Assembly (NCBI GenBank): GCA_029553505.1
Contig: JAKPKY010000249.1
Span: forward strand, 1-11,603
Direction of reading: 5' to 3'
Source: Planctomycetota bacterium
GTDB lineage: Bacteria > Planctomycetota > Phycisphaerae > SM23-33
DNA: 11,603 nt
The translations under genes and the position numbers were made by a program. A model generated the notes under the pieces. That model did not search any database. It had not been told where the DNA came from and saw only the letters and a list, made by a program, of their open reading frames with translations. Numbering within the stretch: the stretch's first letter is position 1; each line of letters starts with the position of its first letter. This document shows positions 147-11,008 of this stretch, one piece after another.

Positions 147-920
147 TCACAGGCCGCTATCGAGCACCATGCCGAAGCGGCGCTCGCGCTGGCTGAAGGC
201 CCGGATGGCGTCCAGCAAGTGCTCCGCCGCAAAGTCGGGCCACAGCACATCCATGACGACAATCTCGGCGTAAGCGATCTGCCAGAGCAGGAAGTTGCTG
301 ACGCGCAGCTCGCCGGCGGTGCGGATGACCAGGTCGGGGTCGGGCACTCCGGCGGAGTCCAGATGCGTGGAGATGGCGGCTTCGTCGATCTTCGCGGGGT
401 CGAGCGTTCCGTCGCGGGCCTCGGCGGCGACGGCGCGGACGGCGTCGACGATCTCCGCGCGCGACCCGTAATTCAACGCCAGGCACAGGAACATCCCGGT
501 GTTGGACGACGAGACGCGGACGGTCTCGTCCAGCTCGCGCAGGACATTTTCGGGCAGTCCGTCGCGCCGCCCCAGGTGCCGCACGCGGATGTTGTGGTCC
601 ATCACCGTGGGGCGCTCGTGGATGAGGTAGTCGGCGTAGAGGTGCATCAGGGCGTTGACCTCTTCGCGCGGGCGGCGCCAGTTCTCGATGGAGAAGCTGT
701 AGAGCGTCAGGGCGTCCATCCCCAGCCTGGCCGCCTCGGTGACGATGCGGCGGACGACCTTGGCGCCTTCCTGGTGCCCCACCGGGCGCGGAAGCCCACG
801 GGCGCGGGCCCAGCGCCCGTTCCCGTCCATGATGATGGCCACCGAGCGCGGAATCCGCCCCTCGCCGACGCCCAGTTCGGCCCGCGCCTTCGCGACGGCT
901 TGCGGGGATATGTCCGCCAT
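147..920 (-). CDS. uppS: Undecaprenyl-diphosphate synthase (cis-isoprenyl transferase), 257 aa from MADISPQ (alternative upstream start at 953)
   Basis: Translation carries hallmark UppS motifs (IIMDGNGRWA, ALTLYSFSIENWRRP, NYGSR, RTAGELRVSNFLLWQIAYAEIVVMDVLWPDF, RERRFG); start ATG 920-918 overlaps the purA stop as TAATG. Confidence 0.93.
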   Translation of the reverse strand: MADISPQAVAKARAELGVGEGRIPRSVAIIMDGNGRWARARGLPRPVGHQEGAKVVRRIVTEAARLGMDALTLYSFSIENWRRPREEVNALMHLYADYLIHERPTVMDHNIRVRHLGRRDGLPENVLRELDETVRVSSSNTGMFLCLALNYGSRAEIVDAVRAVAAEARDGTLDPAKIDEAAISTHLDSAGVPDPDLVIRTAGELRVSNFLLWQIAYAEIVVMDVLWPDFAAEHLLDAIRAFSQRERRFGMVLDSGL

Positions 921-2224
921 TACCGAAGCTCCTCGACGCCCGTGCGACGCCAAATGAGCATCTCCCGCTCCGGGCCCACACCGATCGACCCGACCGGGCG
1001 GCCCAGGTACTGCTCAATCCGCTCCACGTACGCCTGTGCCGCGCGGGGCAGGTCGTCGAACCGCCGGCACGCGGAGATGTCTTCCTTCCAGCCGGGCAAC
1101 GTCTCGTAGACGCACTCGGCCTGCGCCATCTCGTTGGGATCGAACGCGTCGATCGCCTTGGAGCCCACGCGGTAGCCCGTGCAGATTTTCAACTCGTCCA
1201 GGCCGGTCAGCACGTCCAGCAGCCCCAGGGCGATCTCGTGGACGCCCGACAGGTCCGCGGTGTATTTGACGAGGAACAGGTCCAGCCAGCCGCAACGCCG
1301 GGGGCGGCCCGTCGTCGTGCCGTATTCGTGCCCGCGCTGGCGGATGTAGTTCCCGGTTTCGTTGTCCTGCTCGGCGGGGAACGGTCCGGCGCCGACGCGG
1401 GTGGTGTAGGCCTTGACCAGCCCGATGACGTGCCCGACGGACGACGGAGGCACGCCCGTCCCGCTCGGGACGCCGCACGCGCTGACCGACGAGCTGGTGA
1501 CGAACGGGTAGGTTCCGTGGTCGATGTCCAGCATGGTTCCCTGCCCGCCCTCGAAGAGGATCCTCTCGCCGGCGGCGGTGGCGCGGCGGAGGAGTTCGCC
1601 CGTGTTGTCGATCATGGGCGCCAGGACGCGGCCGTGCTCGACATACTCCTCGGCGATCTGCTTTCCGTCGAGCGGTTCGGCCCCGTACAGGGCGCCGAAG
1701 ACGCGGCTCTTGATGTCGGCGATCATGCGGACCTTGTCGCGCAGGCGGTCGGGGTCGCGCAGCTCCCCGACGCGGATGGCGGTGGAGCGGTTGGCCTTGT
1801 CGCTGTAGCAAGGCCCGATTCCGCGGGCGGTGGTCCCGATCTTCGCGCCGCCGAGGCTCTGCTCGCTGAGCTGGTCCTGGAGCTTGTGCCAGGGCATGAC
1901 CACCTGGGCGCAGGCGGAGATGCGAAGGTTCCGCTCGTCGGCCTCGACGCCGCGGGCCCGCAAGCCCTCGATTTCCTTCCGGGCCACCGGCGGGTCGAAC
2001 GCCACGCCGTTTCCGATGACGTTCACCACGTCCGGGCGGAAGATTCCGCAGGGAATCAGGTGGAGGGCGAATTTCTCGGTCCCGACGACCACGGTATGCC
2101 CGGCGTTGGCCCCGCCGCAATACCTGGCGACGTACCGCGAGACGCCCGCGACGGCGTCCACGATCTTGCCCTTGCCCTCGTCACCCCATTGAAGGCCCAC
2201 GACGCAGACGTTCTTGCATGCCAT
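920..2224 (-). CDS. purA: Adenylosuccinate synthetase, 434 aa
   Basis: N-terminal P-loop GLQWGDEGKGK, GHTV, TTARGIGPCY, and the GTTGRPRRCGWLD motif typical of PurA; stop TAA at 922-920 overlaps the uppS start by 1 nt, suggesting translational coupling. Confidence 0.95.
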   Translation of the reverse strand: MACKNVCVVGLQWGDEGKGKIVDAVAGVSRYVARYCGGANAGHTVVVGTEKFALHLIPCGIFRPDVVNVIGNGVAFDPPVARKEIEGLRARGVEADERNLRISACAQVVMPWHKLQDQLSEQSLGGAKIGTTARGIGPCYSDKANRSTAIRVGELRDPDRLRDKVRMIADIKSRVFGALYGAEPLDGKQIAEEYVEHGRVLAPMIDNTGELLRRATAAGERILFEGGQGTMLDIDHGTYPFVTSSSVSACGVPSGTGVPPSSVGHVIGLVKAYTTRVGAGPFPAEQDNETGNYIRQRGHEYGTTTGRPRRCGWLDLFLVKYTADLSGVHEIALGLLDVLTGLDELKICTGYRVGSKAIDAFDPNEMAQAECVYETLPGWKEDISACRRFDDLPRAAQAYVERIEQYLGRPVGSIGVGPEREMLIWRRTGVEELR

Positions 2225-2363
2225 GATCTCTGTGGTTCTCCGTATCGGAGGCGCGCGTTCCGATCCCCTCGGAACCCCATGAGCATAAACGACGCCGCGG
2301 GGGAGTCAAGGATTCTCCGCCCGCCGGCGGGGACAACCGGAGAAAAGCCGCGGAAAGTTGTGC

Positions 2364-2387
2364 TTGACGGGGACGACTTGTTACAAT
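2364..2387 (+). promoter_or_regulatory. Candidate sigma70-type promoter with extended -10 (TGtTACAAT at 2379-2387) for the 2428 gene; TTGACG at 2364-2369 is only 12 nt upstream, so the extended -10 is probably the functional determinant
   Basis: tgcTTGACGgggacgactTGtTACAATatc read directly; ~40 nt upstream of a GTG start with a strong AGGGAG SD. Confidence 0.35.
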
Positions 2388-2427
2388 ATCTGTAGGCAGG
2401 CAATTCAGGAGTAGAGGGAGATCATTC

Positions 2428-2700
2428 GTGGTCAGTGAACGAAGAAGCGCCGCCCTGCTGGGCATCGGGCTGGACCGGGACAACGAACAATTCCGCGTGA
2501 CACGCGGACCGAATTTCTACCTCGTCGGCGGGTCGCGGGAGACCCACGAATCCATGCAGGAAAAGTGCCTCAAGTTCAACGAGAAGCTCGATTCCCGCGG
2601 AAAGCAGCTGGAGGACCTGGAGCACCGCGAGTTCCTGGATCTCGCGGCCGAATGCAGGATGAACGTCGTCGCGCCGGCCCCCGGTCGGGACGTGAAATAA
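2428..2700 (+). CDS. Hypothetical small protein, 90 aa, no recognisable family
   Basis: GTG start 7 nt after AGGGAG SD (2415-2420); own promoter; moderately charged, no signal peptide or TM; ends TAA then an AT-richer spacer. Confidence 0.55.
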   Translation: MVSERRSAALLGIGLDRDNEQFRVTRGPNFYLVGGSRETHESMQEKCLKFNEKLDSRGKQLEDLEHREFLDLAAECRMNVVAPAPGRDVK

Positions 2701-2832
2701 TTCTGAAAAATTCCCCTTGCCAATTTGCGGCAGCGGGGTTCCAATAATAAGTCATGTCGTACCATGGCCGGAAAGGGAGTTTCGGCCGAGAGGATCAGGA
2801 GGAAGAGCAAATCGTTGCACGGGAGGACGCGT

Positions 2833-3030
2833 ATGCGAGCGTTTCGCCCAAGTGCCTTCGCGCCACAGGAAGAGGTGTTGCTGGACGCAGAGGCGGAGTT
2901 GGAGAGGCAATCCAACATTCGCCTGTACGAACAGCGCGCCCAGGCCGGGATGCCTCTGTTTGAGCGCCACCCCGACCGCCAGGTCCTGTCGCTAGGTACG
3001 CCGGAGTTCGTGCTGGACATGCCTTTCTGA
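2833..3030 (+). CDS. Hypothetical small protein, 65 aa (alternative longer starts at 2764 MAGKG or 2725 in the same frame)
   Basis: ATG 2833 preceded by GGGAGG (2821-2826) at 6 nt spacing; possible promoter TTGCCA(2719-2724)-17-TCCAAT upstream; followed by a 7-bp-stem hairpin 3046-3072 without a strong T-run. Confidence 0.35.
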   Translation: MRAFRPSAFAPQEEVLLDAEAELERQSNIRLYEQRAQAGMPLFERHPDRQVLSLGTPEFVLDMPF

Positions 3031-3175
3031 GGCGTGGCGAGCCTCGTCGAGGAGAGCGACGAGCCCTTTGCCGGCCGCCCCACAAGCCCGCCTGGGCGGG
3101 TGTCGGAACGTCCCTGTGCGCAGACCGACCCGCACCGCGCCACGCGGCGATTGCGTCTCGCGCGGGCGCGGACCG

Positions 3176-3204
3176 TTGCCCTCGCGCGAAGATGGGGGCA
3201 TAAT
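3176..3204 (+). promoter_or_regulatory. Candidate promoter for ispE: TTGCCC (3176-3181) - 17 nt - CATAAT (3199-3204)
   Basis: Hexamers with canonical 17-nt spacing ~40 nt upstream of the ispE GTG start. Confidence 0.4.
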
Positions 3205-3242
3205 CCCTGTCCGCGGGCGCGGCATGCCCGCGAGGGACTTCC

Positions 3243-4154
3243 GTGACCGACCAAACCGACATCCTGCGCGTCTCGCCTCCGCTGCCGCGAATGCGGCGTC
3301 TCTCGCCGTCGCGCGTCGTGCTGCACGCGCCGGCGAAGATCAACCTGAACCTGCTGGTGGGGCCCCGCCGCGACGACGGTTATCACGGCCTGGACTCGAT
3401 CGTGGCGCGGGTGTCGCTGTACGACCGCATCGAGCTGCGCGCCCGCGACGACGGGCAGGTGGTCCTGGCTTGCGCGGGGTTCGACTGCGGGCCGGCGGAG
3501 CGGAACCTGGCGCACCTGGCGGCCGAGGCGATGCGCCGCGCCGCCGGCGCGCCGCGCGGCGCGGACATTCGCCTGGACAAACGGATCGGTCCCGGGCGCG
3601 GGCTGGGCGGCGGCTCGTCCGATGCGGCCGCCGTGCTCGAAGGACTCAACGACCTGTGGCGCTTGCGCCTGCCGCCGGAGCGGCTGGGCGAGATGGCCGC
3701 CTCGCTCGGCAGCGACGTGCCGCTGTTCCTGGGCCCGGCGACCGCGCGGATGACCGGGCGCGGGGAGATTCTCGCGCCGGTCGAGGTTCACCCCTTTTCC
3801 GCGATCCTGGTGCTGGCGCCGCGCCTGGCCTGCGCGACGCGCGAGGTGTATCGCGCGTTCGACGAGCGCCCCGCCCCGCCGGAGCGGCAGCTGCCGCCCG
3901 AAACGTTCCGCGGGCCGCCGTCGGCGTGGCGCGGGCGGCTGGTGAACCACCTGGCCAACGCCGCCTGCCGCGTCTGCCCGCCGCTGGGCGAGGTTATCGA
4001 GACCCTGCGCCGCGCGACCGGGCTGCCCGTCCACGTCACCGGCAGCGGAAGCGGGCTGTTCGTGCTCTGCGACGATTCCGGCGAGGCGCAGGCCGTCGCC
4101 GCGCACATGCCGTCGTCCCTGCGCGAGTGCAGCCTGATTGTGGAACCCGCCTGA
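3243..4154 (+). CDS. ispE: 4-diphosphocytidyl-2-C-methyl-D-erythritol kinase (MEP pathway, GHMP kinase family)
   Basis: APAKINLNLLV, RRDDGYHGL, DKRIGPGRGLGGGSSDAAAVLEGLNDLW, LGSDVPLF motifs match IspE; GTG start at 3243 with GAGGGA SD 5 nt upstream (alternative internal start MRRLSPS at 3291 lacks an SD). Confidence 0.9.
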   Translation: MTDQTDILRVSPPLPRMRRLSPSRVVLHAPAKINLNLLVGPRRDDGYHGLDSIVARVSLYDRIELRARDDGQVVLACAGFDCGPAERNLAHLAAEAMRRAAGAPRGADIRLDKRIGPGRGLGGGSSDAAAVLEGLNDLWRLRLPPERLGEMAASLGSDVPLFLGPATARMTGRGEILAPVEVHPFSAILVLAPRLACATREVYRAFDERPAPPERQLPPETFRGPPSAWRGRLVNHLANAACRVCPPLGEVIETLRRATGLPVHVTGSGSGLFVLCDDSGEAQAVAAHMPSSLRECSLIVEPA

Positions 4155-4166
4155 CGGAAGCGACCG

Positions 4167-4691
4167 TCAGTCCTTGTCGCCTTTTTTCTTGCCCTTGTCG
4201 TCATCGTCATCGTCGTCGCGGTCCTTCATGTGCTGCTGGATCGCGGCGTCGTTCTCGACGATCATCGCCTGGAGGTGCTTGACCGCCTTCTCCGTTTCGC
4301 CCTGTTTCTTGTAGAGGTCCTTGAGCGTCAGGTGCAGGGCATTGCGCAGGCCGAGGGTCTTGGTCTTCTCCAGCGTCTCCTCCAGGTCCCTGGCGATGAC
4401 GTCGTCCTTGCGGGGCAGGTCGTCCTTCAGGGCGCCCAGGGCGATCATCCCCGCCGTCGTGGGGTCGAAGCAGACGTGCTTAAGATGCTCGACCATCCCG
4501 AGCATCATGCGGATTTGCCCCATCGGCTCATGCGGCCGGGGGGGCGTGGGCTGGCCAGGCCGCGGCCCTTCCCGCGGTCCTTCCCGTTCGGGCGCCGCAT
4601 CCGGGCGAGGCTGGGCGATGGCCCACGTCGCCAGCAAAGTCGCGGCAACAACCGCCGTCACAATCACCGGCATGGCAATCCTGGTCTTCAT
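4167..4691 (-). CDS. Secreted/periplasmic hypothetical protein, 174 aa: signal peptide, Pro-rich linker, helical domain, C-terminal poly-Asp/Lys tail (DRDDDDDDDKGKKKGDKD)
   Basis: Start MKTRIAMPVIVTAVVAATLLATWAIA (ATG 4691-4689) preceded by AAAGGAA SD; typical signal peptide with AxA-like cleavage region; longer ORF to 4748 lacks an SD; convergent with ispE. Confidence 0.6.
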   Translation of the reverse strand: MKTRIAMPVIVTAVVAATLLATWAIAQPRPDAAPEREGPREGPRPGQPTPPRPHEPMGQIRMMLGMVEHLKHVCFDPTTAGMIALGALKDDLPRKDDVIARDLEETLEKTKTLGLRNALHLTLKDLYKKQGETEKAVKHLQAMIVENDAAIQQHMKDRDDDDDDDKGKKKGDKD

Positions 4692-4762
4692 GGTCGGTTC
4701 CTTTCTTCCCTTGGGGGTGAGTGATGATTCCTGGTCCACGGATGACAATTTTACCGCGGCCC

Positions 4763-4791
4763 TTGACCGTCCGACACGATCATGCTACAAG
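4763..4791 (+). promoter_or_regulatory. Candidate promoter for tRNA-Ala: TTGACC (4763-4768) - 17 nt - TACAAG (4786-4791)
   Basis: Good -35 and spacing; weak -10 (last base G); tRNA 5' end 15 nt downstream. Confidence 0.3.
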
Positions 4792-4805
4792 GAAACCTGC
4801 TGCAT

Positions 4806-4878
4806 GGGGCTGTGGCGCAGTTGGGAGCGCGTCTGCATGGCATGCAGAAGGTCGAGGGTTCAAATCCCTCCAGCTCCA
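4806..4878 (+). tRNA. tRNA-Ala (anticodon GGC), 73 nt, CCA not encoded
   Basis: Cloverleaf folded by hand: acceptor GGGGCTG/CAGCTCC with the G3:U70 wobble pair that defines Ala identity; D-stem GCGC/GCGC; anticodon stem TCTGC/GCAGA with loop ATGGCAT (GGC at 34-36), identical in stem-loop architecture to E. coli tRNA-Ala(GGC); T-stem GAGGG/CCCTC with loop TTCAAAT; discriminator A. Confidence 0.92.
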
Positions 4879-4882
4879 TTGA

Positions 4883-4911
4883 GGCGGACCTTTTCGGGTT
4901 CGCCTTTTTTA
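4883..4911 (+). terminator. Rho-independent terminator for tRNA-Ala: GGCGGACC-ttttcg-GGTTCGCC then TTTTTTATTT
   Basis: 8-bp GC-rich stem (one G:T wobble) followed by a T-run; the T-run overlaps the TAA stop (4911-4909) of the convergent minus-strand gene. Confidence 0.7.
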
Positions 4912-6192
4912 TTTCCCCGCCTTGGTTTCCGGAGGGGCTTCGCTCGCAACCATTGATTCCCTAAGGCATTGGAACGCCTCGCTCATCCGGACGGCGTCCG
5001 GCTCGCCCGAAGCGTCGAAGACCATCGCCATGGGCGCGGCGTTGAGGCCGGGACGGACTTTCGCCCCCGCGACGACCAGCCAGCGGTGCCACTTGCCGGC
5101 CGAGGGCGTCAGCACGCTGAAAATTTCCGTCGCCGTCTCGCCCGCCTGCCAGGACTTGTGGACCAGGACGAGGTATCCCTTGTCGCGGAAGTGTTGCAGG
5201 TAGGTGTCCAGGACGGCCTGCGGCGTCTTGGCCGACCGCCCCGCCAGCGCGCGGGCGAACAGCAGCCCGCCCGGCGCGGGCGTGAGGTACAACTGGGCGT
5301 AGGGTTCGATCTCGGCAACATACTTTCGTTCGCCGCGTTCGAAGCGGACCCAGCCCGTCGGGGGCCTGACCTCGATTCGCAAAGGCCCGTCGCGTTTGGA
5401 GACGGCCTGTCCGGGCGCGGCGGCGGGCGTCTCGGCCAGCGCCTTGACCAGCGCTGCCGCGAAGGGCTCGTAGAGCTTCCGCTCTCCCTCGGCCTGGTGG
5501 TCGGGCCCGCGCGGCGGGGCCTTGCCTGCCGCGACGGCCTCCAGCCAGGCGTCCAGCGCGTCGTCGGGCTCGACAAACTCCAGGCCCTCGCCCAGGCGCG
5601 TGTCGAGGGTGAAATTCGCGTCAGCGCCGTCCGCCGTCTGTCGCCACATCGTCAGCGTGCCGGCCGCGTCTTGCGGGCGCGTGCCCACGCTCACCCAGAC
5701 GGGCACGGACGCGGGCGGCTTCCACAGGCCGATCGACTCGCCGGATTTTTCCACCGGCGTCACGGAGTTCAGCACGATCCCCGACAGGCGTTGCGGGTTC
5801 AGAGAGGCCAGCGCCAGCGCCGTCGGACCGTTGGCGGCGTCGGCGACGAGCAGGAACTTCCGCGCGTCGAGGGGCTTTCCCTCGGCTGCCCGGTCCACGG
5901 CCGCCAGCAACGCCCCGACGCGCGAGGCGTCGAGTTTTTCCCCGGCCGCCGGGCGAAACACGAAGAAGCCCTTGGCGAGCAGCCGCGGAGTGAAGTGCTC
6001 CGCCGCGCCGCGCGGCCCCTCGGCCGCCAGCAGCAGCGCGGCAGGACGCTTGCCTTCGGCCGCCTTGGGAGTCAGGACCGCCAGGTTGACGGGCTCCGCC
6101 GACTGCGACGCCGGCTGCGACGCCGCATCGGCCCCCATGGCGACGGCCACCAAACCCGCCCACGCCACTGCCGCAACGATGTGCCTGTTCAT
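4909..6192 (-). CDS. Secreted hypothetical protein, 427 aa (signal peptide MNRHIVAAVAWAGLVAVAMGADA); ORF is open upstream to a TTG at 6270 but that extension overlaps the MITE-like repeat
   Basis: Long ORF with non-artefactual composition (many K/E/F/W/Y); N-terminal hydrophobic signal sequence from ATG 6192; no motifs I can assign to a family. Confidence 0.55.
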   Translation of the reverse strand: MNRHIVAAVAWAGLVAVAMGADAASQPASQSAEPVNLAVLTPKAAEGKRPAALLLAAEGPRGAAEHFTPRLLAKGFFVFRPAAGEKLDASRVGALLAAVDRAAEGKPLDARKFLLVADAANGPTALALASLNPQRLSGIVLNSVTPVEKSGESIGLWKPPASVPVWVSVGTRPQDAAGTLTMWRQTADGADANFTLDTRLGEGLEFVEPDDALDAWLEAVAAGKAPPRGPDHQAEGERKLYEPFAAALVKALAETPAAAPGQAVSKRDGPLRIEVRPPTGWVRFERGERKYVAEIEPYAQLYLTPAPGGLLFARALAGRSAKTPQAVLDTYLQHFRDKGYLVLVHKSWQAGETATEIFSVLTPSAGKWHRWLVVAGAKVRPGLNAAPMAMVFDASGEPDAVRMSEAFQCLRESMVASEAPPETKAGK

Positions 6193-6245
6193 GCCGTCAC
6201 TGAATACCCCAAATCCGCCCCGACGGCAAGAAGCGAAAATAGTAG

Positions 6246-6385
6246 CCAGGCTCTGTCTGAAAACTCGCAATCCGGGGGTGCCACGGCTTGCTTGTCAAGC
6301 CGTGTCGCCGCAAGAACACTGCTTGCAAGCAAGCAGTGCCACCCTTGTGGATACATCTGGCGAGGAGTTTTCAGACAGAGCCTGG
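6246..6385. mobile_element. MITE-like element, 140 bp: perfect 21-bp terminal inverted repeats (CCAGGCTCTGTCTGAAAACTC 6246-6266 / GAGTTTTCAGACAGAGCCTGG 6365-6385) flanked by TAG on both sides (6243-6245, 6386-6388); carries two GC-rich palindromic hairpin modules
   Basis: Inverted repeat and flanking TAG direct repeat read directly from sequence; no ORF inside; sits in the divergent promoter region between the 4909..6192 gene and mutY. Confidence 0.4.
6274..6344. repeat. Two adjacent palindromic hairpin modules (R1 family) inside the MITE-like element: GGGGGTGCCAC-GGCTTG-cttgt-CAAGCC-GTG (6274-6304) and, in opposite orientation, CACTGCTTGC-aa-GCAAGCAGTGCCACCC (6317-6344)
   Basis: The reverse complement of the second module (GGGTGGCACtGCTTGCTTGCAAGCaGTGTTC) is near-identical to 10304-10336 (GGGTGGCACgGCTTGCTTGCAAGCcGTGTTC). 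Confidence 0.6.
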
Positions 6386-6417
6386 TAGCCTGTGCATCGG
6401 TCGGAGCGCACGAACCG

Positions 6418-6446
6418 CTTGGCCGGGCGGTCGGCGGACCGTACAA
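6418..6446 (+). promoter_or_regulatory. Candidate mutY promoter: TTGGCC (6418-6423) - 17 nt - TACAAT (6441-6446), followed by a GC palindrome CCCCGCGCGGGG in the leader
   Basis: Canonical spacing; 40 nt upstream of the mutY GTG. Confidence 0.4.
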
Positions 6447-6486
6447 TGCCCCGGCCGCCCCGCGCGGGGCCGGCGGAATCCGTATC

Positions 6487-7572
6487 GTGAAGCTCTCCCC
6501 AAAGATCGTCGAAGACGTCCGGAAACGCCTGCTGGACTGGTATCGCCGCCACTGCCGCGAGATGCCCTGGCGGCAAATCCGCGACCCCTACGCCATCTGG
6601 ATTTCCGAGATCATGCTCCAGCAGACGCGGGTGACGGCCGTCGTGCCCTACTTCCGCCGATTCCTGGAGCGATTCCCCGACGCAGCGTCGCTGGCCCGGG
6701 CCCGCCTCGACGACGTGCTCAAGGCATGGGAAGGCCTGGGCTACTACAGCCGCGCGCGGAACCTCCACGCGGCCGCCAAGCGCGTCGTGGCCGACTTCGG
6801 CGGGGCACTGCCCCGCAGCGTCGAGCAACTCCGCTCGCTGCCGGGCGTGGGGCAATACACGGCCGGGGCCATCGCGAGCATCGCGTTCGGCCTGGACGAA
6901 CCCGTGCTGGACGGAAACGTGACGCGCGTGCTGTGCCGCCTGCTGCGCGTGGAATCCGACCCGCGCAGCGGCGCGACGGTGCGCGGGCTGTGGGCGGCGG
7001 CGCGGCGGCTCGTGCCGCGCGGAAAGGCCGGCCTGTTCAACCAGGCGATGATGGACCTTGGCGCGACCGTCTGCACGCCGCGCAACCCCCGCTGCGGCGC
7101 CTGCCCGCTGGCGACGCCCTGCCGCGCCCGCGCAGCCGGCGTGCAGGAGCAACTGCCGCGCAAGGCCTCCCGCAAGCCCCTGCCGCACCACACCGTCGTC
7201 TGCGCGATCGTCCGCCGGCGCGGGCGCATCCTCCTGGGCCGCCGCCGGGAAGAGGGACTGCTGGGCGGCCTGTGGGAATTCCCCGGCGGGAAGGTCGAGC
7301 CCGGCGAGTCGCTGCCGCAGGCCCTCGCGCGGGAAGTGCGAGAGGAAGTCGGCCTGGACATCCGCGTGGGCGAGCGGCTGGCCGTCGTCGAGCACGCCTA
7401 CACGCACTTCCGGATCACGCTGCACGCCTTCGACTGCCGGGCGGACAACGGGCGGGCGCGGGCGCTCGGCTGCCAGCGCGTCCGATGGGTCCGCCCAAAC
7501 GAACTCGACCAGTACGCCTTCCCCCGCGCCAACCGCCGCATCCTCCAGGCCATCACGGAATTTTCGATTTGA
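6487..7572 (+). CDS. mutY: A/G-specific adenine DNA glycosylase MutY with C-terminal NUDIX/MutT-like domain, 361 aa
   Basis: LLDWYRRH..R.MPWR, EIMLQQTRV, helix-hairpin-helix LPGVGQYTAGAIASIAFG, catalytic D in VLDGNVTRV, 4Fe-4S Cys cluster CTPRNPRCGACPLATPC, C-terminal WEFPGGKVE NUDIX-like fold; GTG start at 6487 is the first in-frame start after the promoter; the long upstream extension of the ORF (from 4969) is antisense to the previous gene. Confidence 0.9.
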   Translation: MKLSPKIVEDVRKRLLDWYRRHCREMPWRQIRDPYAIWISEIMLQQTRVTAVVPYFRRFLERFPDAASLARARLDDVLKAWEGLGYYSRARNLHAAAKRVVADFGGALPRSVEQLRSLPGVGQYTAGAIASIAFGLDEPVLDGNVTRVLCRLLRVESDPRSGATVRGLWAAARRLVPRGKAGLFNQAMMDLGATVCTPRNPRCGACPLATPCRARAAGVQEQLPRKASRKPLPHHTVVCAIVRRRGRILLGRRREEGLLGGLWEFPGGKVEPGESLPQALAREVREEVGLDIRVGERLAVVEHAYTHFRITLHAFDCRADNGRARALGCQRVRWVRPNELDQYAFPRANRRILQAITEFSI

Positions 7573-7615
7573 GATTTGACCTTCGGTCCTCGGTCTTCGG
7601 TATCCGGTATCCGGG
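7566..7615. repeat. Heptanucleotide tandem repeats: GATTTGA x2 (7566-7579, overlapping the mutY stop) then YYTCGGT-like x5 (CTTCGGT CCTCGGT CTTCGGT ATCCGGT ATCCGGG, 7581-7615)
   Basis: 7-bp periodicity read directly from sequence. Confidence 0.75.
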
Positions 7616-7725
7616 TTCCTTTCCGGGCGATGGTCGCGGCGCTGTATGGGGATTTCTTTGTTGCGAGCGTCTTGGCGACCACTCCCTTACGGTCGTGGCT
7701 CTGTAAAAGCCCGAGGCACAATTCG

Positions 7726-7858
7726 CGATTTCCGATTGCCTGCTGCCTATTGCCTTCTTCCCTCAGTCCTCCCAATTGTCAATTGACAATCGACAATTGA
7801 CAATTTCTCACCACTCTCCACTCTGCACTCTCCACTCTGCACTCACCACTCTCTCCTG
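7726..7858. repeat. Continuous-phase array of 19 imperfect heptamers. Units: CGATTTC, CGATTGC, CTGCTGC, CTATTGC, CTTCTTC, CCTCAGT, CCTCCCA, ATTGTCA, ATTGACA, ATCGACA, ATTGACA, ATTTCTC, ACCACTC, TCCACTC, TGCACTC, TCCACTC, TGCACTC, ACCACTC, TCTCCTG
   Basis: 133 bp in which sub-arrays of distinct unit sequence (TGC-type, CAATTG-type, CACTC-type) follow each other without breaking the 7-nt phase; lower GC than the flanks. Confidence 0.75.
7775..7790. promoter_or_regulatory. Perfect 16-bp palindrome ATTGTCAATTGACAAT (two CAATTG cores) embedded in the heptamer array; candidate operator for a dimeric regulator
   Basis: Self-complementary on inspection; ~100 bp upstream of the putative nfeD promoter. 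Confidence 0.4.
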
Positions 7859-7886
7859 ACATGTCCCAAAAGCGCGGGGTTGTGAC

Positions 7887-7916
7887 TTGCCAGCGCGCGG
7901 GCAGGATGGGTATCTT
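7887..7916 (+). promoter_or_regulatory. Candidate promoter of the nfeD-floT operon: TTGCCA (7887-7892) - 18 nt - TATCTT (7911-7916)
   Basis: Best hexamer pair between the repeat array and the AAGGAG SD at 7980-7985; weak call. Confidence 0.3.
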
Positions 7917-7992
7917 TCGTTCCGGCGGGCGGGGGCGCCCGCGCAGGCTGGCAGCATGGGCCTGAACGCACCTCGCGATAAGGAGTCTTGCC

Positions 7993-8628
7993 ATGACGGA
8001 ATGGTGGACGCACCTGACGATGCTGAACCAGTCGTTTTACGTGGCGGCGGGGTTCTTCAGCATCATCTTCCTGTGGCAGTTCATCGGCGCGATGCTGGGC
8101 ATGGGCCACGGCGACGTGGACCTGCATCTGGACGCGGGCGCCGACGCCGCCGACGTCGGCGGCGACAGCCTGGAGGCGCACTCGGCGCACGAGGCAGCCG
8201 ACAGCGCCGCGGCCTTCAAGGTGCTCTCCCTCCGCGCGGTGCTGGCGTTCTGCACGATGTTCGCCTGGGCCGGGGCGCTGTACCTGAACCTCGGCACGCG
8301 CGTGGCGATCGCCCTGCTGTACGCCCTGGCGTGGGGCCTGGCGGGCTGGGCGCTGGTGGCGGTGCTGGTGAACTGGATGCGCCGCCTGTCCGAGAGCGGC
8401 ACGCCGCGCCTGAGCTCGTGCGTGGGCACGACGGGCACGGTGTACCTGCACATCCCGGCCGGCGGGTGCGGCGAGGCGCGCGTGATGGTCAGCGGGGTCA
8501 TCTCGACGGTCAAGGCCCGCGCCGCCGACGGCGGGCAGATGGTCGCGGGCACGCCCGTCCGCGTGACCGCCGTGCTGGATCACTCCACGATATCGGTCGC
8601 CCCTGTCACGGGGGAGAAAACTGCCTGA
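7993..8628 (+). CDS. nfeD: NfeD-like membrane protein (short NfeD/YuaF type): N-terminal TM helices plus C-terminal OB-fold beta-barrel, 211 aa
   Basis: AAGGAG SD 7 nt upstream of the ATG; two or three hydrophobic helices (FYVAAGFFSIIFLWQFIGAMLG, AVLAFCTMFAWAGALYL, IALLYALAWGLAGWALVAVLV) then GTVYLHIPAGGCGEARVMVSGVISTVKARAADGGQMVAGTPVRVTAVLDHSTISV typical of the NfeD C-terminal domain; sits immediately upstream of a flotillin gene, as in the B. subtilis yuaF-yuaG pair. Confidence 0.75.
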   Translation: MTEWWTHLTMLNQSFYVAAGFFSIIFLWQFIGAMLGMGHGDVDLHLDAGADAADVGGDSLEAHSAHEAADSAAAFKVLSLRAVLAFCTMFAWAGALYLNLGTRVAIALLYALAWGLAGWALVAVLVNWMRRLSESGTPRLSSCVGTTGTVYLHIPAGGCGEARVMVSGVISTVKARAADGGQMVAGTPVRVTAVLDHSTISVAPVTGEKTA

Positions 8629-8779: not shown

Positions 8780-10270
8780 ATGAACGCAATGACGGCAATG
8801 CCGGCCCTTCTGGCGGCGACGGGCGACGAGGGGGGATTCCCCACCGGGGTCGTGCTGACGCTGATGCTCCTGGTCATCGGGTTCGGCGTGCTGATGTTCT
8901 TCTTCAGCCGCATCCGCCGGTGCCCCTCCAACAAGGTGCTGGTCATCTACGGGAAAACGGGCAGCGGCGCCGCGCGGTGCGTGCACGGCGGAATGGCGTT
9001 CGTCTGGCCGCTGATCCAGGCGTACGACTACCTGGACCTCGAGCCGTTCGTCGTGCCGATCGACCTGACCAACGCGCTGTCGCAGGAGAACATCCGCGTG
9101 TCGGTTCCGACGACGGTGACGGCCGCCATCTCCAACCAGCCGGGCGTCATGGAAAACGCCGCCATCCGACTGCTGGGACTGACGCGCGGGCAGATTCAGG
9201 CGCAGGCGCAGGACATCATCCTCGGGCAGATGCGCGCGGTCATCGCCACGATGAAGATCGAGGACATCAACCGCGATCGCCAGGCGTTCATGAGCGCGGT
9301 GAACGAGGCCGTGACGTTCGAGTTGGAGAAGATCGGCCTGGGCGTCATCAACGTCAACATCCGCGACATCGAGGACGAGTCGGGATACATCAAGGCGCTG
9401 GGGCGCAAGGCGGCGGCCGAGGCCATCAACCAGGCCAACATCGACGTCGCCGAGCAGGAGAAGCGCGGGCAGACGGGCGTGGCCGAGCGCCAGCGCGACA
9501 CGCGCATCGCGGTGGCCAACGCCAACGCGCTGGCGGACATCGGCGAATCGCAGGCCAGCCGCGACCGGCGACAGAAAGTCGCCGGGCTCGAGGCGCAGGC
9601 GGTCGAGGCCGAAACCGACGCCGACGCCAAGAAGGCCTCCTACCGCGCCAACCAGCGCGTGGCCGAGGAGCAGGCGCGCAACCGGTCGGAATCGGCCGGC
9701 AAGGAGGCCGACGGCGCCATCCGCGTCGCGCAGGAAGTCGCCCAGAAAAAGGCCGAGGAAGCTCGCGCCCAGCGCGAGCAGGCGCGCCTGAACGCCGAGG
9801 TGGTCGTGCCCGCCAACGCCCAGCGGGAGAAGGTCATCATCGCCGCCGAGGCCGAGAAACAGCAGTCCATCCGGATCGCCGAAGGACAGGCCGCCGCCAC
9901 CCTCGCCAAGATGCAGGCCGAGGCCAAGGGCGTCCAGGCCATCCTCGACGGAAAGGCCGAGGGCTACCAGCGACTCGTCGAGGCGTGCAAGGCGGCCGAG
10001 CAGGTGGCCGCCCTGCTGCTCATCGAGAAGCTCGCGGACGTCGCGGCCGTCCAGGCCCAGGCGATCAAGGACCTGCCCATCGAGAAGGTCATCGTCTGGG
10101 ACGGCGGCGGCGACGGCGAGGGCGGGCTCAAGGGGCTGGGCGGACGGCTGCTCGGGGCCCTGCCGCCCATGCACGACCTGGCCAAGCAGGTCGGGCTGGA
10201 GCTGCCGGAGTTCCTCGGGCGCATCGCGGCGGAAGCCAACAAGACGCCAAAGCCCGCCAAGGACGCCTGA
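8780..10270 (+). CDS. floT: Flotillin-like SPFH/band-7 protein, 496 aa
   Basis: AAAGGAA SD 9 nt before ATG 8780; N-terminal membrane hairpin (GVVLTLMLLVIGFGVLMFFF) then SPFH domain (KVLVIYGKTGS..., IEDINRDRQAF, GYIKALGRKAAAE); long Ala/Glu/Gln-rich coiled-coil (EA-repeat) region; C-terminal KVIVWDGGGDGEGG. The in-frame extension back to 8663 has no SD and is judged artefactual. Confidence 0.88.
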   Translation: MNAMTAMPALLAATGDEGGFPTGVVLTLMLLVIGFGVLMFFFSRIRRCPSNKVLVIYGKTGSGAARCVHGGMAFVWPLIQAYDYLDLEPFVVPIDLTNALSQENIRVSVPTTVTAAISNQPGVMENAAIRLLGLTRGQIQAQAQDIILGQMRAVIATMKIEDINRDRQAFMSAVNEAVTFELEKIGLGVINVNIRDIEDESGYIKALGRKAAAEAINQANIDVAEQEKRGQTGVAERQRDTRIAVANANALADIGESQASRDRRQKVAGLEAQAVEAETDADAKKASYRANQRVAEEQARNRSESAGKEADGAIRVAQEVAQKKAEEARAQREQARLNAEVVVPANAQREKVIIAAEAEKQQSIRIAEGQAAATLAKMQAEAKGVQAILDGKAEGYQRLVEACKAAEQVAALLLIEKLADVAAVQAQAIKDLPIEKVIVWDGGGDGEGGLKGLGGRLLGALPPMHDLAKQVGLELPEFLGRIAAEANKTPKPAKDA

Positions 10271-10338: not shown

Positions 10339-10367
10339 CTCGCGCATGCGTGCGGGGCACTACGGAT

Positions 10368-10440
10368 GGGTGCCACGGCCAAGCGCTGTCTGCTTGGCCG
10401 TGCGGACACCCTCAAGCACACGACGCTTGAGGGTGGCACC
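10368..10440 (+). repeat. R2 element, 73 nt, predicted three-way junction: outer stem GGTGCCA/TGGCACC; hairpin 1 GGCCAAGC-gctgtct-GCTTGGCC; linker GTGCGGACA; hairpin 2 CCCTCAAGC-acacgac-GCTTGAGGG
   Basis: 70/73 identical to 10936-11008; lies in the 5' leader of the bPH gene. Confidence 0.7.
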
Positions 10441-10460: not shown

Positions 10461-10910
10461 ATGGAAATGACGATGGAGATTCAGCGCCGCAAGGTGGAGA
10501 GTTACCTGCTCTGGCAGGCGGCGCTGACGTTTCTGCTGATCGGGGTGTGCACGTGGGGCGTCGGCCTGGCCGTGGGGTTGTTGTACCTGCTGACGTTCGG
10601 CCCGTACGTCGCCCGCCGGCGGGCCGAGGCGCTGGAGTACCGCCTGGACGGAACGACCGTGCGGATCCGCGAGGGATTCCTCTTCATCAAGCACAAGAGC
10701 ATCCCGCTGGACCGCGTGACGGACATCGTGATGGACCAGGGCCCGCTGCTGCGGCACTACGGGCTGTGGACGCTGAAGCTCCAGACGGCCGGCGTCGGCC
10801 AGGGGCGTGCCGAGGGCGTACTGTACGGCCTGACGGAACCCGAGCGCATCCGCGAGATGCTGATCGCCGCCCGCGACCAGGCCGCCCGCCGCGGCGACTA
10901 CGCGGCGTGA
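10461..10910 (+). CDS. Bacterial PH-domain (bPH_2 / YdbS-like, DUF304-type) membrane protein, 149 aa
   Basis: GGAG 8 nt upstream of the ATG; two N-terminal TM helices (LLWQAALTFLLIGVCTWGVGLAVGLLYLLTF) followed by a ~90-aa domain with the characteristic IPLDRVTDI...QGPLLRHYGLWTLKLQTAG pattern of bPH_2 proteins. Confidence 0.75.
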   Translation: MEMTMEIQRRKVESYLLWQAALTFLLIGVCTWGVGLAVGLLYLLTFGPYVARRRAEALEYRLDGTTVRIREGFLFIKHKSIPLDRVTDIVMDQGPLLRHYGLWTLKLQTAGVGQGRAEGVLYGLTEPERIREMLIAARDQAARRGDYAA

Positions 10911-10926: not shown

Positions 10927-10935
10927 GGTCTATCT

Positions 10936-11008
10936 GGGTGCCACGGCCTGGCGCTGTCTGCTTGGCCGTGCGGACACCCTCAAGCACACGACGCTTGAGG
11001 GTGGCGCC
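10936..11008 (+). repeat. R2 element, copy 2 (GGGTGCCACGGCCtgGCGCTGTCTGCTTGGCCGTGCGGACACCCTCAAGCACACGACGCTTGAGGGTGGCgCC)
   Basis: 96% identical to 10368-10440; differences are AA->TG in the hairpin-1 5' arm (weakens pairing) and A->G in the outer stem (keeps G:U). Confidence 0.7.

Follow-up and report, generated by a model that had tools for sequence, protein, structure and literature searches.

Upstream of the nfeD-flotillin (nfeD-floT) operon of a Planctomycetota bacterium (Phycisphaerae; SM23-33), a tract of heptanucleotide repeats occupies positions 7726-7858 of an 11,603-nucleotide stretch of DNA (GenBank assembly GCA_029553505.1, contig JAKPKY010000249.1, forward strand), the whole of which is called the window below. 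We conclude that the tract is probably a composite heptanucleotide simple sequence repeat (SSR), of a class over-represented in Planctomycetes, situated in the unconstrained spacer between mutY and nfeD. The observations that carry this reading are: 1) the 7-nt periodicity of the tract; 2) an excess of period 7 in the lineage; 3) 7-nt indels and block replacement between sister lineages; 4) conservation of the adjacent promoter; and 5) stability of the tract within the strain. The tract thus appears to have no sequence-specific role for nfeD-floT. It would be at most an AT-richer spacer, the turnover of which could incidentally alter the upstream context of the promoter.

The first-pass annotation of this DNA had divided positions 7726-7858 into nineteen consecutive heptamers, and we reproduced this division exactly. 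Periodicity was evaluated by the identity of a sequence with itself at a shift of k nucleotides (lag-k self-identity), with 5000 mononucleotide shuffles as the null. At lags 7, 14 and 21, the self-identity of 7726-7858 was 0.68, 0.58 and 0.48, and the remaining lags gave 0.19-0.36. Shuffled sequences gave 0.29±0.04 at lag 7, with none of the 5000 reaching the observed value, and Tandem Repeats Finder (TRF) called the arrays independently. A sliding lag scan of the whole window revealed 7-periodic segments solely in the mutY-nfeD spacer, at 7555-7626 and 7707-7869, and nothing comparable to lag 7 at other non-triplet lags. The spacer is 420 bp long and AT-richer than its surroundings; GC content within the tract is 0.50, compared with 0.68 for the whole window and about 0.75 for the flanking genes, in agreement with the AT-richness noted earlier.

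The tract is made of three tandem arrays (approximately 7719-7753, 7773-7805 and 7807-7853; blocks A, C and D) plus degenerate linkers, and the 7-periodic zone starts at about 7719, earlier than 7726. For the portion of block A at 7726-7753, lag-7 identity was 0.71 versus 0.26±0.09 after shuffling, a level reached by none of the 5000 shuffles. The linker at 7754-7772 (linker B) gave 0.58 versus 0.39±0.13, and 606 of the 5000 shuffles reached this value. At block junctions, neighbouring units agree at 3-4 of 7 positions and lag-7 identity is 0.50; at the first junction lag 8 gives 0.57, so that lag 7 is no better than other lags there. Linker B is kept in a sister lineage (described below) apart from a 1-nt indel, which breaks the heptamer frame. 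The continuous phase over nineteen units that had been proposed is therefore not upheld, as phase continuity across arrays with unrelated units is indistinguishable from a choice of frame. The longest perfect repetition in the tract is a 14-mer present twice, and the heptamer arrays, of 4.7 and 6.7 copies at most, have 82-88% matches. No two adjacent CAATTGA units of block C are identical, and block D is also called by TRF as the 14-mer CACTCTCCACTCTG in 2.9 copies with 96% matches. Within the window the motif of block C occurs at this site only, and that of block D only here save for one chance match with 3 mismatches at 10490-10503.

In addition to these blocks, a left composite array overlaps the mutY stop codon (TGA, 7570-7572). 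Its lag-7 segment at 7555-7626 peaks at 0.79, and lag-7 identity over 7573-7640 is 0.56 versus 0.28±0.06 after shuffling (0 of 5000 reach it). The heptamer tract is non-coding: mutY stops before it, at 7572, and nfeD starts after it, at 7993. Open reading frames (ORFs) overlapping it are not conserved, the sequence being replaced in the sister lineage. A coding reading was considered for a 243-aa ORF that runs across the repeats in another contig of the same strain (L001), and was rejected: the ORF has no Pfam match and its sequence is not kept in the sister lineage.

To see how the tract varies, the window was compared with fetched contigs and loci, which carry L numbers here. The same-strain set consists of the window and L001, L002, L003, L004 and L083 (at least 4 assemblies); these five match the window at 99.9-100% identity. 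For the sister lineage (UBA12270 type), whose NfeD is 95% identical to that of the window, the contigs are L050/L086, L085 and L087. A homology search with NfeD returned just two sequences within 90% identity, the next being at 64%, which leaves a single informative sister lineage. An exact-pattern scan of metagenome contigs with the conserved promoter box gave no match, and a protein-guided scan gave one distant locus and nothing more; strain-level variation was therefore taken from exact-protein look-ups, which supplied the same-strain set. The heptamer tract is identical in the window and all five same-strain contigs, and the sister form is identical in three assemblies. Variation in unit number across strains, which the first-pass annotation had suggested looking for, was thus absent from the same-strain set at the level of consensus assemblies.

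Between the two lineages the picture is one of change in 7-nt steps. Divergence at fourfold sites of nfeD and mutY is 0.07-0.09. The sister keeps block A with exactly one 7-nt unit fewer, the span GGCAC...CTTCTTCC measuring 39 nt there and 46 nt in the window. Its left array (L085) has exactly one TCGGTCT unit fewer than that of the window, and 34 nt made of other heptamers have been inserted (GATTTTT GATTTCA ... TTTCAGC TTTCCGC). Blocks C and D, 80 nt together, give way in the sister to an unrelated pyrimidine-rich stretch of 35 nt, GTTTCTTTCCCCTCTTCCCTTCGGCCTTTCCCCTT, and the segment with this replacement is itself 7-periodic (lag-7 identity 0.59, reached by 0 of 5000 shuffles). The occurrence of 7-nt indels and block replacement at such a divergence therefore indicates that the arrays turn over far faster than neutral point substitution. 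Turnover in 7-nt steps beside a conserved promoter block is the behaviour of a simple repeat in unconstrained DNA.

The conserved block directly 3' of the tract is predicted to be the functional promoter and 5' untranslated region (5'UTR) of nfeD-floT, and differs from that of the sister lineage at 6 of its 141 nt (7852-7992). The predicted -35 element starts 28 nt past the end of the tract, close to the distance of about 30 bp given in the first-pass annotation. That TTGCCA-18-TATCTT is the real promoter is supported by comparison with L022, a locus whose NfeD is 49% identical to that of the window. The layout ATGTCCNAAAAG...TGACTTGCMAGC...GGGTAYYTTT is common to both, and the L022 box CATGTCCTAAAAGC...TGACTTGCAAGC...GGGTACTTTT is clearly homologous to CATGTCCCAAAAGC...TGACTTGCCAGC...GGGTATCTTT in the window. 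A conserved box, CATGTCCYAAAAGC (window 7852-7880; L022 85-115), lies about 10-25 nt 5' of the predicted nfeD -35 and could serve the operon as a regulator site or an UP-like element. A candidate promoter inside block C (TTGTCA-17-GACAAT, 9/12 on both strands) was rejected, as it scores on both strands because the repeat is symmetric and the block is absent in the sister.

Period 7 is not confined to this locus. The period survey covered 82 fetched loci (628 kb), 169 kb of which are from Planctomycetota. Segments periodic at lag 7 numbered 33; the counts were 3 at lag 5, 2 at lag 10, 2 at lag 11 and 0 at lag 8. In the Planctomycetota share, TRF found 23 arrays of period 7/14 (13.6 per 100 kb), compared with 2 of period 8/16, 1 of period 5, 3 of period 10/20 and 5 of period 11/22. 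The density of period-7/14 arrays was 7.8 per 100 kb in Bacteroidota and 1.5 in other Planctomycetes-Verrucomicrobia-Chlamydiae phyla and Firmicutes. The nfeD-floT loci compared numbered about 50 and came from other phyla as well as Planctomycetota. Within 700 bp upstream of nfeD, 7-periodic DNA was found only in this lineage, L022 and L048, and about 45 other loci have no upstream array. In L048, nine copies of CCTGTGC abut the ribosome-binding site of nfeD; in L022, six copies of TTCCCGA stand directly upstream of the conserved promoter box. As the units of the window, L022 and L048 are unrelated, there is no common binding site, and the L022 comparison shows that arrays extend right to where the constrained promoter block begins. 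The period-7 excess is therefore a property of the lineage and not of the nfeD promoter, in line with one of the explanations offered at first, a lineage-specific repeat class: arrays of many heptamer units recur in Planctomycetota loci, and over-representation of 7-mers in the phylum is published (PMC4060949, Table 2).

The same genome holds a second heptamer locus, 8 kb away, in the spacer on which a CLC channel gene and an RF-1-domain gene converge (L001 1072-1186), beyond the left end of the window. A GAAAGCT-type array is followed there by its reverse complement, forming a hairpin, and in the sister lineage (L085 833-940) both arms have fewer units, with gaps of 7, 10 and 7 nt. In the sister, the TTTCAGC/TTTCCGC units of this hairpin are found again downstream of the mutY stop (L085 ~9400-9435). 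Inverted pairs of heptamer arrays were observed at L001 1083-1189, L048 7572-7952 and 8536-8788, L016 5-249, L079 8614-8746, L028 1136-1215 and L022 160-235. Some flank 140-350 bp of non-coding DNA, as with ATTGCGG x4 ... CAATCCG x4.6, found twice in 1.3 kb of L048; in others the arms are almost adjacent, and the L022 pair lies in the nfeD 5'UTR. Such pairs might be hairpin modules or miniature inverted-repeat transposable element (MITE)-like elements.

Between the left array and block A lies the non-periodic core of a partial copy of a 204-bp minisatellite unit. L001, L002 and L003 carry 3.6 tandem copies of this unit between the two heptamer arrays (L001 9041-9740), and repeat finding on L001 resolved four copies at spacings of 204/168/205. 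The window and L083 retain only the last 121 nt of the unit, an exact 577-bp difference from L001 that could be either a collapsed assembly or a real length polymorphism; NCBI versions have runs of N in this region. The end of the minisatellite unit runs on into block A, internal copies reading ...CGCGATTGCCTGCTTTCG and the last copy ...CGCGATTTCCGATTGCCTGCTGCCTATTGCC. The sister has about 2 copies of ~172 nt (L085 9455-9790). A full unit contains GGAAC three times and GTTCC four times as inverted arms, heptamer-spaced. By blastn, no copy of the unit was found outside this locus in any fetched sequence. The idea that the unit is a duplicated copy of the promoter was discarded, since its local alignment scored 19 versus 17.6±2.3 for shuffled sequences.

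With at least three tandem copies, a non-coding location, the period-7 excess of its lineage and length change by whole units, the tract falls among heptanucleotide SSRs (pattern 7n3, or long SSRs of 5-11 bp). Slipped-strand mispairing in replication would add or remove whole 7-nt units. Point mutation would then let units drift, giving the 'morphing' units of the tract, and whole blocks would be replaced over short evolutionary times. Mrazek et al. (2007) are cited in PMC4679880 and PMC4692102 for the finding that heptanucleotides are the most abundant long-SSR class in most genomes, and for the proposal that slippage at period 7 would be favoured because the polymerase contacts about 7 nt of DNA. 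The phylum medians for pattern 7n3 of Huang and Mrazek (2014, Table 2) are highest in Planctomycetes, at 2.0, followed by Chloroflexi and Deferribacteres (1.0 each), Bacteroidetes (0.75) and Verrucomicrobia (0.5), with 0 for all other phyla (PMC4060949). Heptamer tracts of Xanthomonas lie between the same genes and vary extensively in length and sequence among close relatives (Rehm et al. 2015; PMC4692102), and MacGregor (2015) described intergenic mixtures of different heptamer repeats at which assemblies break (PMC4679880). The first-pass annotation had regarded a fixed 7-bp period with changing units as unexplained by known features; mixed-unit intergenic heptamer tracts are in fact on record from Xanthomonas, cyanobacteria, Beggiatoaceae and Bacteroidetes (PMC4692102, PMC4679880).

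Several points weigh against a simple repeat in unconstrained DNA. The array of L022, a distant relative with an NfeD 49% identical to that of the window, stands at the same place as the tract, directly upstream of the conserved CATGTCC-AAAAGC box; something besides the absence of constraint could favour this position. The palindrome of block C is strong, includes perfect TTGACA hexamers and scores as a weak promoter on either strand. Heptamer arrays elsewhere often come as inverted pairs with arms that change together, a hint that at least some of them are selected for their structure. The period-7 excess was measured in fetched loci, with about 19 kb from this metagenome-assembled genome (MAG), and sequence analysis cannot demonstrate lack of function.

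The best alternative, to which we give a small probability, is a structured or mobile non-coding module, in which the arrays and the 204-bp minisatellite, with its GGAAC/GTTCC arms, would form hairpins or cruciforms that terminate or insulate transcription between the two genes, or be what is left of a MITE-like element with heptamer arrays as its borders. Consistent with it, inverted heptamer-array pairs are common in related loci (L001, L016, L048, L079, L028 and L022), the sister lineages have different numbers of units in both arms of the CLC/RF-1 hairpin, and the ATTGCGG unit recurs four times in 1.3 kb of L048. At the locus itself, block C as single-stranded DNA forms a 13-bp hairpin (z = -4.1), and the left array begins at the mutY stop codon, where a terminator is expected. 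Against it, no inverted partner of block A or D was found within the window, and a terminator scan over 7400-8100 was empty. RNA folds of the whole spacer (z = +0.36) and of the 204-nt unit (z = -0.50) were no more stable than those of shuffles. No Rfam family matched the spacer: at the gathering threshold the sole match in the window was a tRNA (4806-4878), and at E<=1 the long form of the spacer gave only a chance mir-939 hairpin, with 26 bits versus a threshold of 84. As to dispersal in the manner of repetitive extragenic palindromic (REP) sequences or MITEs, motif searches of the window found the array units at this locus only, and the 204-bp unit is likewise restricted to it among the fetched sequences.

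Improbable in our view is a broader reading, in which the heptamer arrays of Planctomycetota form modular cis-elements under selection, recognised in 7-nt steps by a binding protein (perhaps of OB-fold/CSP type) or serving as adjustable hairpins. We leave it open because arrays stand immediately upstream of the nfeD box in two lineages, paired arms change together and units are reused across loci. If it were true, rapid turnover would retune promoters or terminators between strains.

It is less probable still that the tract is a strain-specific operator, as in the iterated regulator-binding array suggested by the first-pass annotation. A dimeric regulator would then bind CAATTG-centred palindromes (TTGTCAATTGACAA), or a protein with 7 nt per monomer, such as a cold-shock-type OB fold on single strands, the pyrimidine-rich CACTCTC units, and the nfeD-floT promoter would be modulated from its 5' side. 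Block C does contain the perfect 16-bp palindrome ATTGTCAATTGACAAT and repeated half-sites, with palindromic arms of 12-13 nt and TTGACA present three times; however, any tandem repeat of a CAATTG-containing unit is automatically palindromic, which counts against the operator. The position, about -35 to -115 counted from the predicted -35 element, would suit a regulator. CspB-type proteins are reported, in the discussion of PMC4679880, to occupy heptamer repeats at one per heptamer, and a cold-shock-domain gene lies 3 kb downstream. Against this, the sister lacks blocks C and D but shares the operon and its promoter, and the approximately 45 array-free nfeD-floT loci show that the repeat unit is not conserved at orthologous promoters. 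Pfam and gene calls found no regulator gene adjoining the locus, and successive sites, being 7 bp apart, do not lie on the same helical face.

Least likely of all is a phase-variable 'tuning-knob' repeat like (ATCTTTC)n of Haemophilus hmw, the remaining suggestion of the first-pass annotation, in which promoter spacing and nfeD-floT expression would shift as populations gain and lose heptamers. The unit length equals that of hmw, block A and the left array differ by 7-nt indels between the sister lineages and the tract adjoins the promoter. However, hmw tracts are homogeneous, number 11 copies or more and form part of the transcribed 5'UTR, downstream of their promoter (PMC12721329). The arrays here are short and imperfect, fall short of a long homogeneous tract, are situated 5' of the predicted -35 element and do not differ among the same-strain assemblies or among the three of the sister form; nfeD-floT, too, is a housekeeping membrane-microdomain operon, not a contingency locus.

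Table 1. Features of the mutY-nfeD-floT region, in positions of the window.
Feature	Position	Strand	Basis or remark
mutY (A/G-specific adenine glycosylase)	6487..7572	+	Pfam HhH-GPD + NUDIX_4; gene call in L001
Left composite array, (AATTTTC) GATTTGA x2, CCTTCGG TCCTCGG TCTTCGG (YCYTCGG x3), TATCCGG x2	7555..7626		TRF 7583-7601, 7598-7614
Partial copy (121 nt) of 204-bp minisatellite unit	7610..7730		Repeat finding on L001, blastn
Block A, CNNTTGC-type heptamers (CGATTTC CGATTGC CTGCTGC CTATTGC in the frame of the first-pass annotation)	7719..7753		Lag-7 match track
Linker B (CTTCTTC CCTCAGT CCTCC), degenerate	7754..7772		Not significantly periodic
Block C, CAATTGA x4.7	7773..7805		TRF, 88% matches; nearly self-complementary
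Block D, CACTCTC/CACTCTG x6.7, pyrimidine-rich on the + strand	7807..7853		TRF (CTCTCCA, 6.7 copies)
Conserved nfeD-floT promoter/5'UTR block (predicted)	7852..7992	+	Promoter scan, sister and L022 comparison
CTCCTGACATGTCCCAAAAGC box	within 7852..7992		Part of the promoter block
Predicted -35, TTGCCA	7887-7892	+	18-nt spacing to -10
Predicted -10, TATCTT	7911-7916	+	Best sigma-70-like site
GC-rich palindrome in the promoter/5'UTR block	7922-7951		
Ribosome-binding site of nfeD, AAGGAG	7980-7985		
nfeD-like gene, 211 aa	7993..8628	+	Weak Pfam NfeD match
Flotillin/SPFH gene, next after nfeD	8780-10270 (longest ORF from 8663)		Pfam Band_7 1e-27

Homologues of the NfeD of the window are annotated as 'membrane protein implicated in regulation of membrane protease activity'; the exact protein is recorded under 'Phycisphaerae bacterium', and the relatives of the flotillin likewise assign the window to the Phycisphaerae of the Planctomycetota. 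Further downstream, a 71-nt direct repeat (copies at 10367-10437 and 10935-11005, 97% identical) flanks a bPH_2-domain gene (10461-10910) and holds two short hairpins, GGCCAAGC..GCTTGGCC and CCCTCAAGC..GCTTGAGGG. The flotillin gene and the bPH_2-domain gene have a common 3' end, ...GCGGCGTGAYGTTTCCCGCAAGCCG, and the latter gene with one 71-nt repeat looks like a duplicated or inserted cassette. At the other end of the window, positions 254-7730 are 99.9% identical to L001, and positions 1-253 do not match L001 1432-1684 (at most ~65-70% similarity in part). The break falls within the 3' end of an undecaprenyl-diphosphate synthase gene on the minus strand and is either a recombination breakpoint or a chimeric assembly.

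Reading the tract as a simple repeat removes a candidate 'switch' and places the predicted nfeD-flotillin promoter in the conserved 140 bp downstream of it. This matters little for the locus; its use is as a comparative example for the unexplained bacterial bias to 7-bp simple repeats, with clean 7-nt indels and whole-block replacement between two lineages at 7-9% neutral divergence. The heptanucleotide SSR class and its excess in Planctomycetes are known already; this lineage, a Phycisphaerae MAG, and this locus are undescribed, and the published excess is hereby extended to uncultured Phycisphaerae. There is also a practical side, as heptamer tracts and the 204-bp minisatellite break or collapse short-read assemblies, so that spacer lengths in such MAGs are unreliable. 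The general question beyond the locus is why 7 bp is favoured, and whether paired arrays that change in concert are selected.

Tandem repeats of 7 bp are also found in Burkholderia. The STRR (short tandemly repeated repetitive) sequences of heterocystous cyanobacteria form the unit families CCCCAGT, TTGGTCA and CAACAGT. They resemble the arrays described here in being heptamer arrays scattered in the non-coding DNA of one lineage; the units of the window (CAATTGA, CACTCTC and CNNTTGC) and their Phycisphaerae host match neither the STRR units nor their lineage. The hmw1A/hmw2A tracts of Haemophilus influenzae share with the tract a 7-nt unit upstream of a coding region and slippage as the source of length change. 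They are perfect (ATCTTTC)n repeats of at least 11 copies, transcribed in the 5'UTR into an RNase III-processed hairpin with a G-rich arm and variable in populations (PMC12721329), and none of these properties was seen here. Closer are the GGGNATC-type tracts of Xanthomonas and Nostoc and the TAACTGA tracts of Beggiatoaceae, cyanobacteria and Bacteroidetes, which are likewise intergenic, of mixed units, at the same position, variable and prone to assembly breaks. By contrast, the units here are neither TAACTGA nor G-rich, hence without G-quadruplex potential, and no unit is dominant in the available sequence. In its intergenic tandem 7-nt units, in the dominance of 7 among non-triplet periods and in a proposed origin by slippage, the tract agrees with the long SSRs of 5-11 bp and the 7n3 class, from which nothing essential separates it, the tract being an imperfect member with several unit types.

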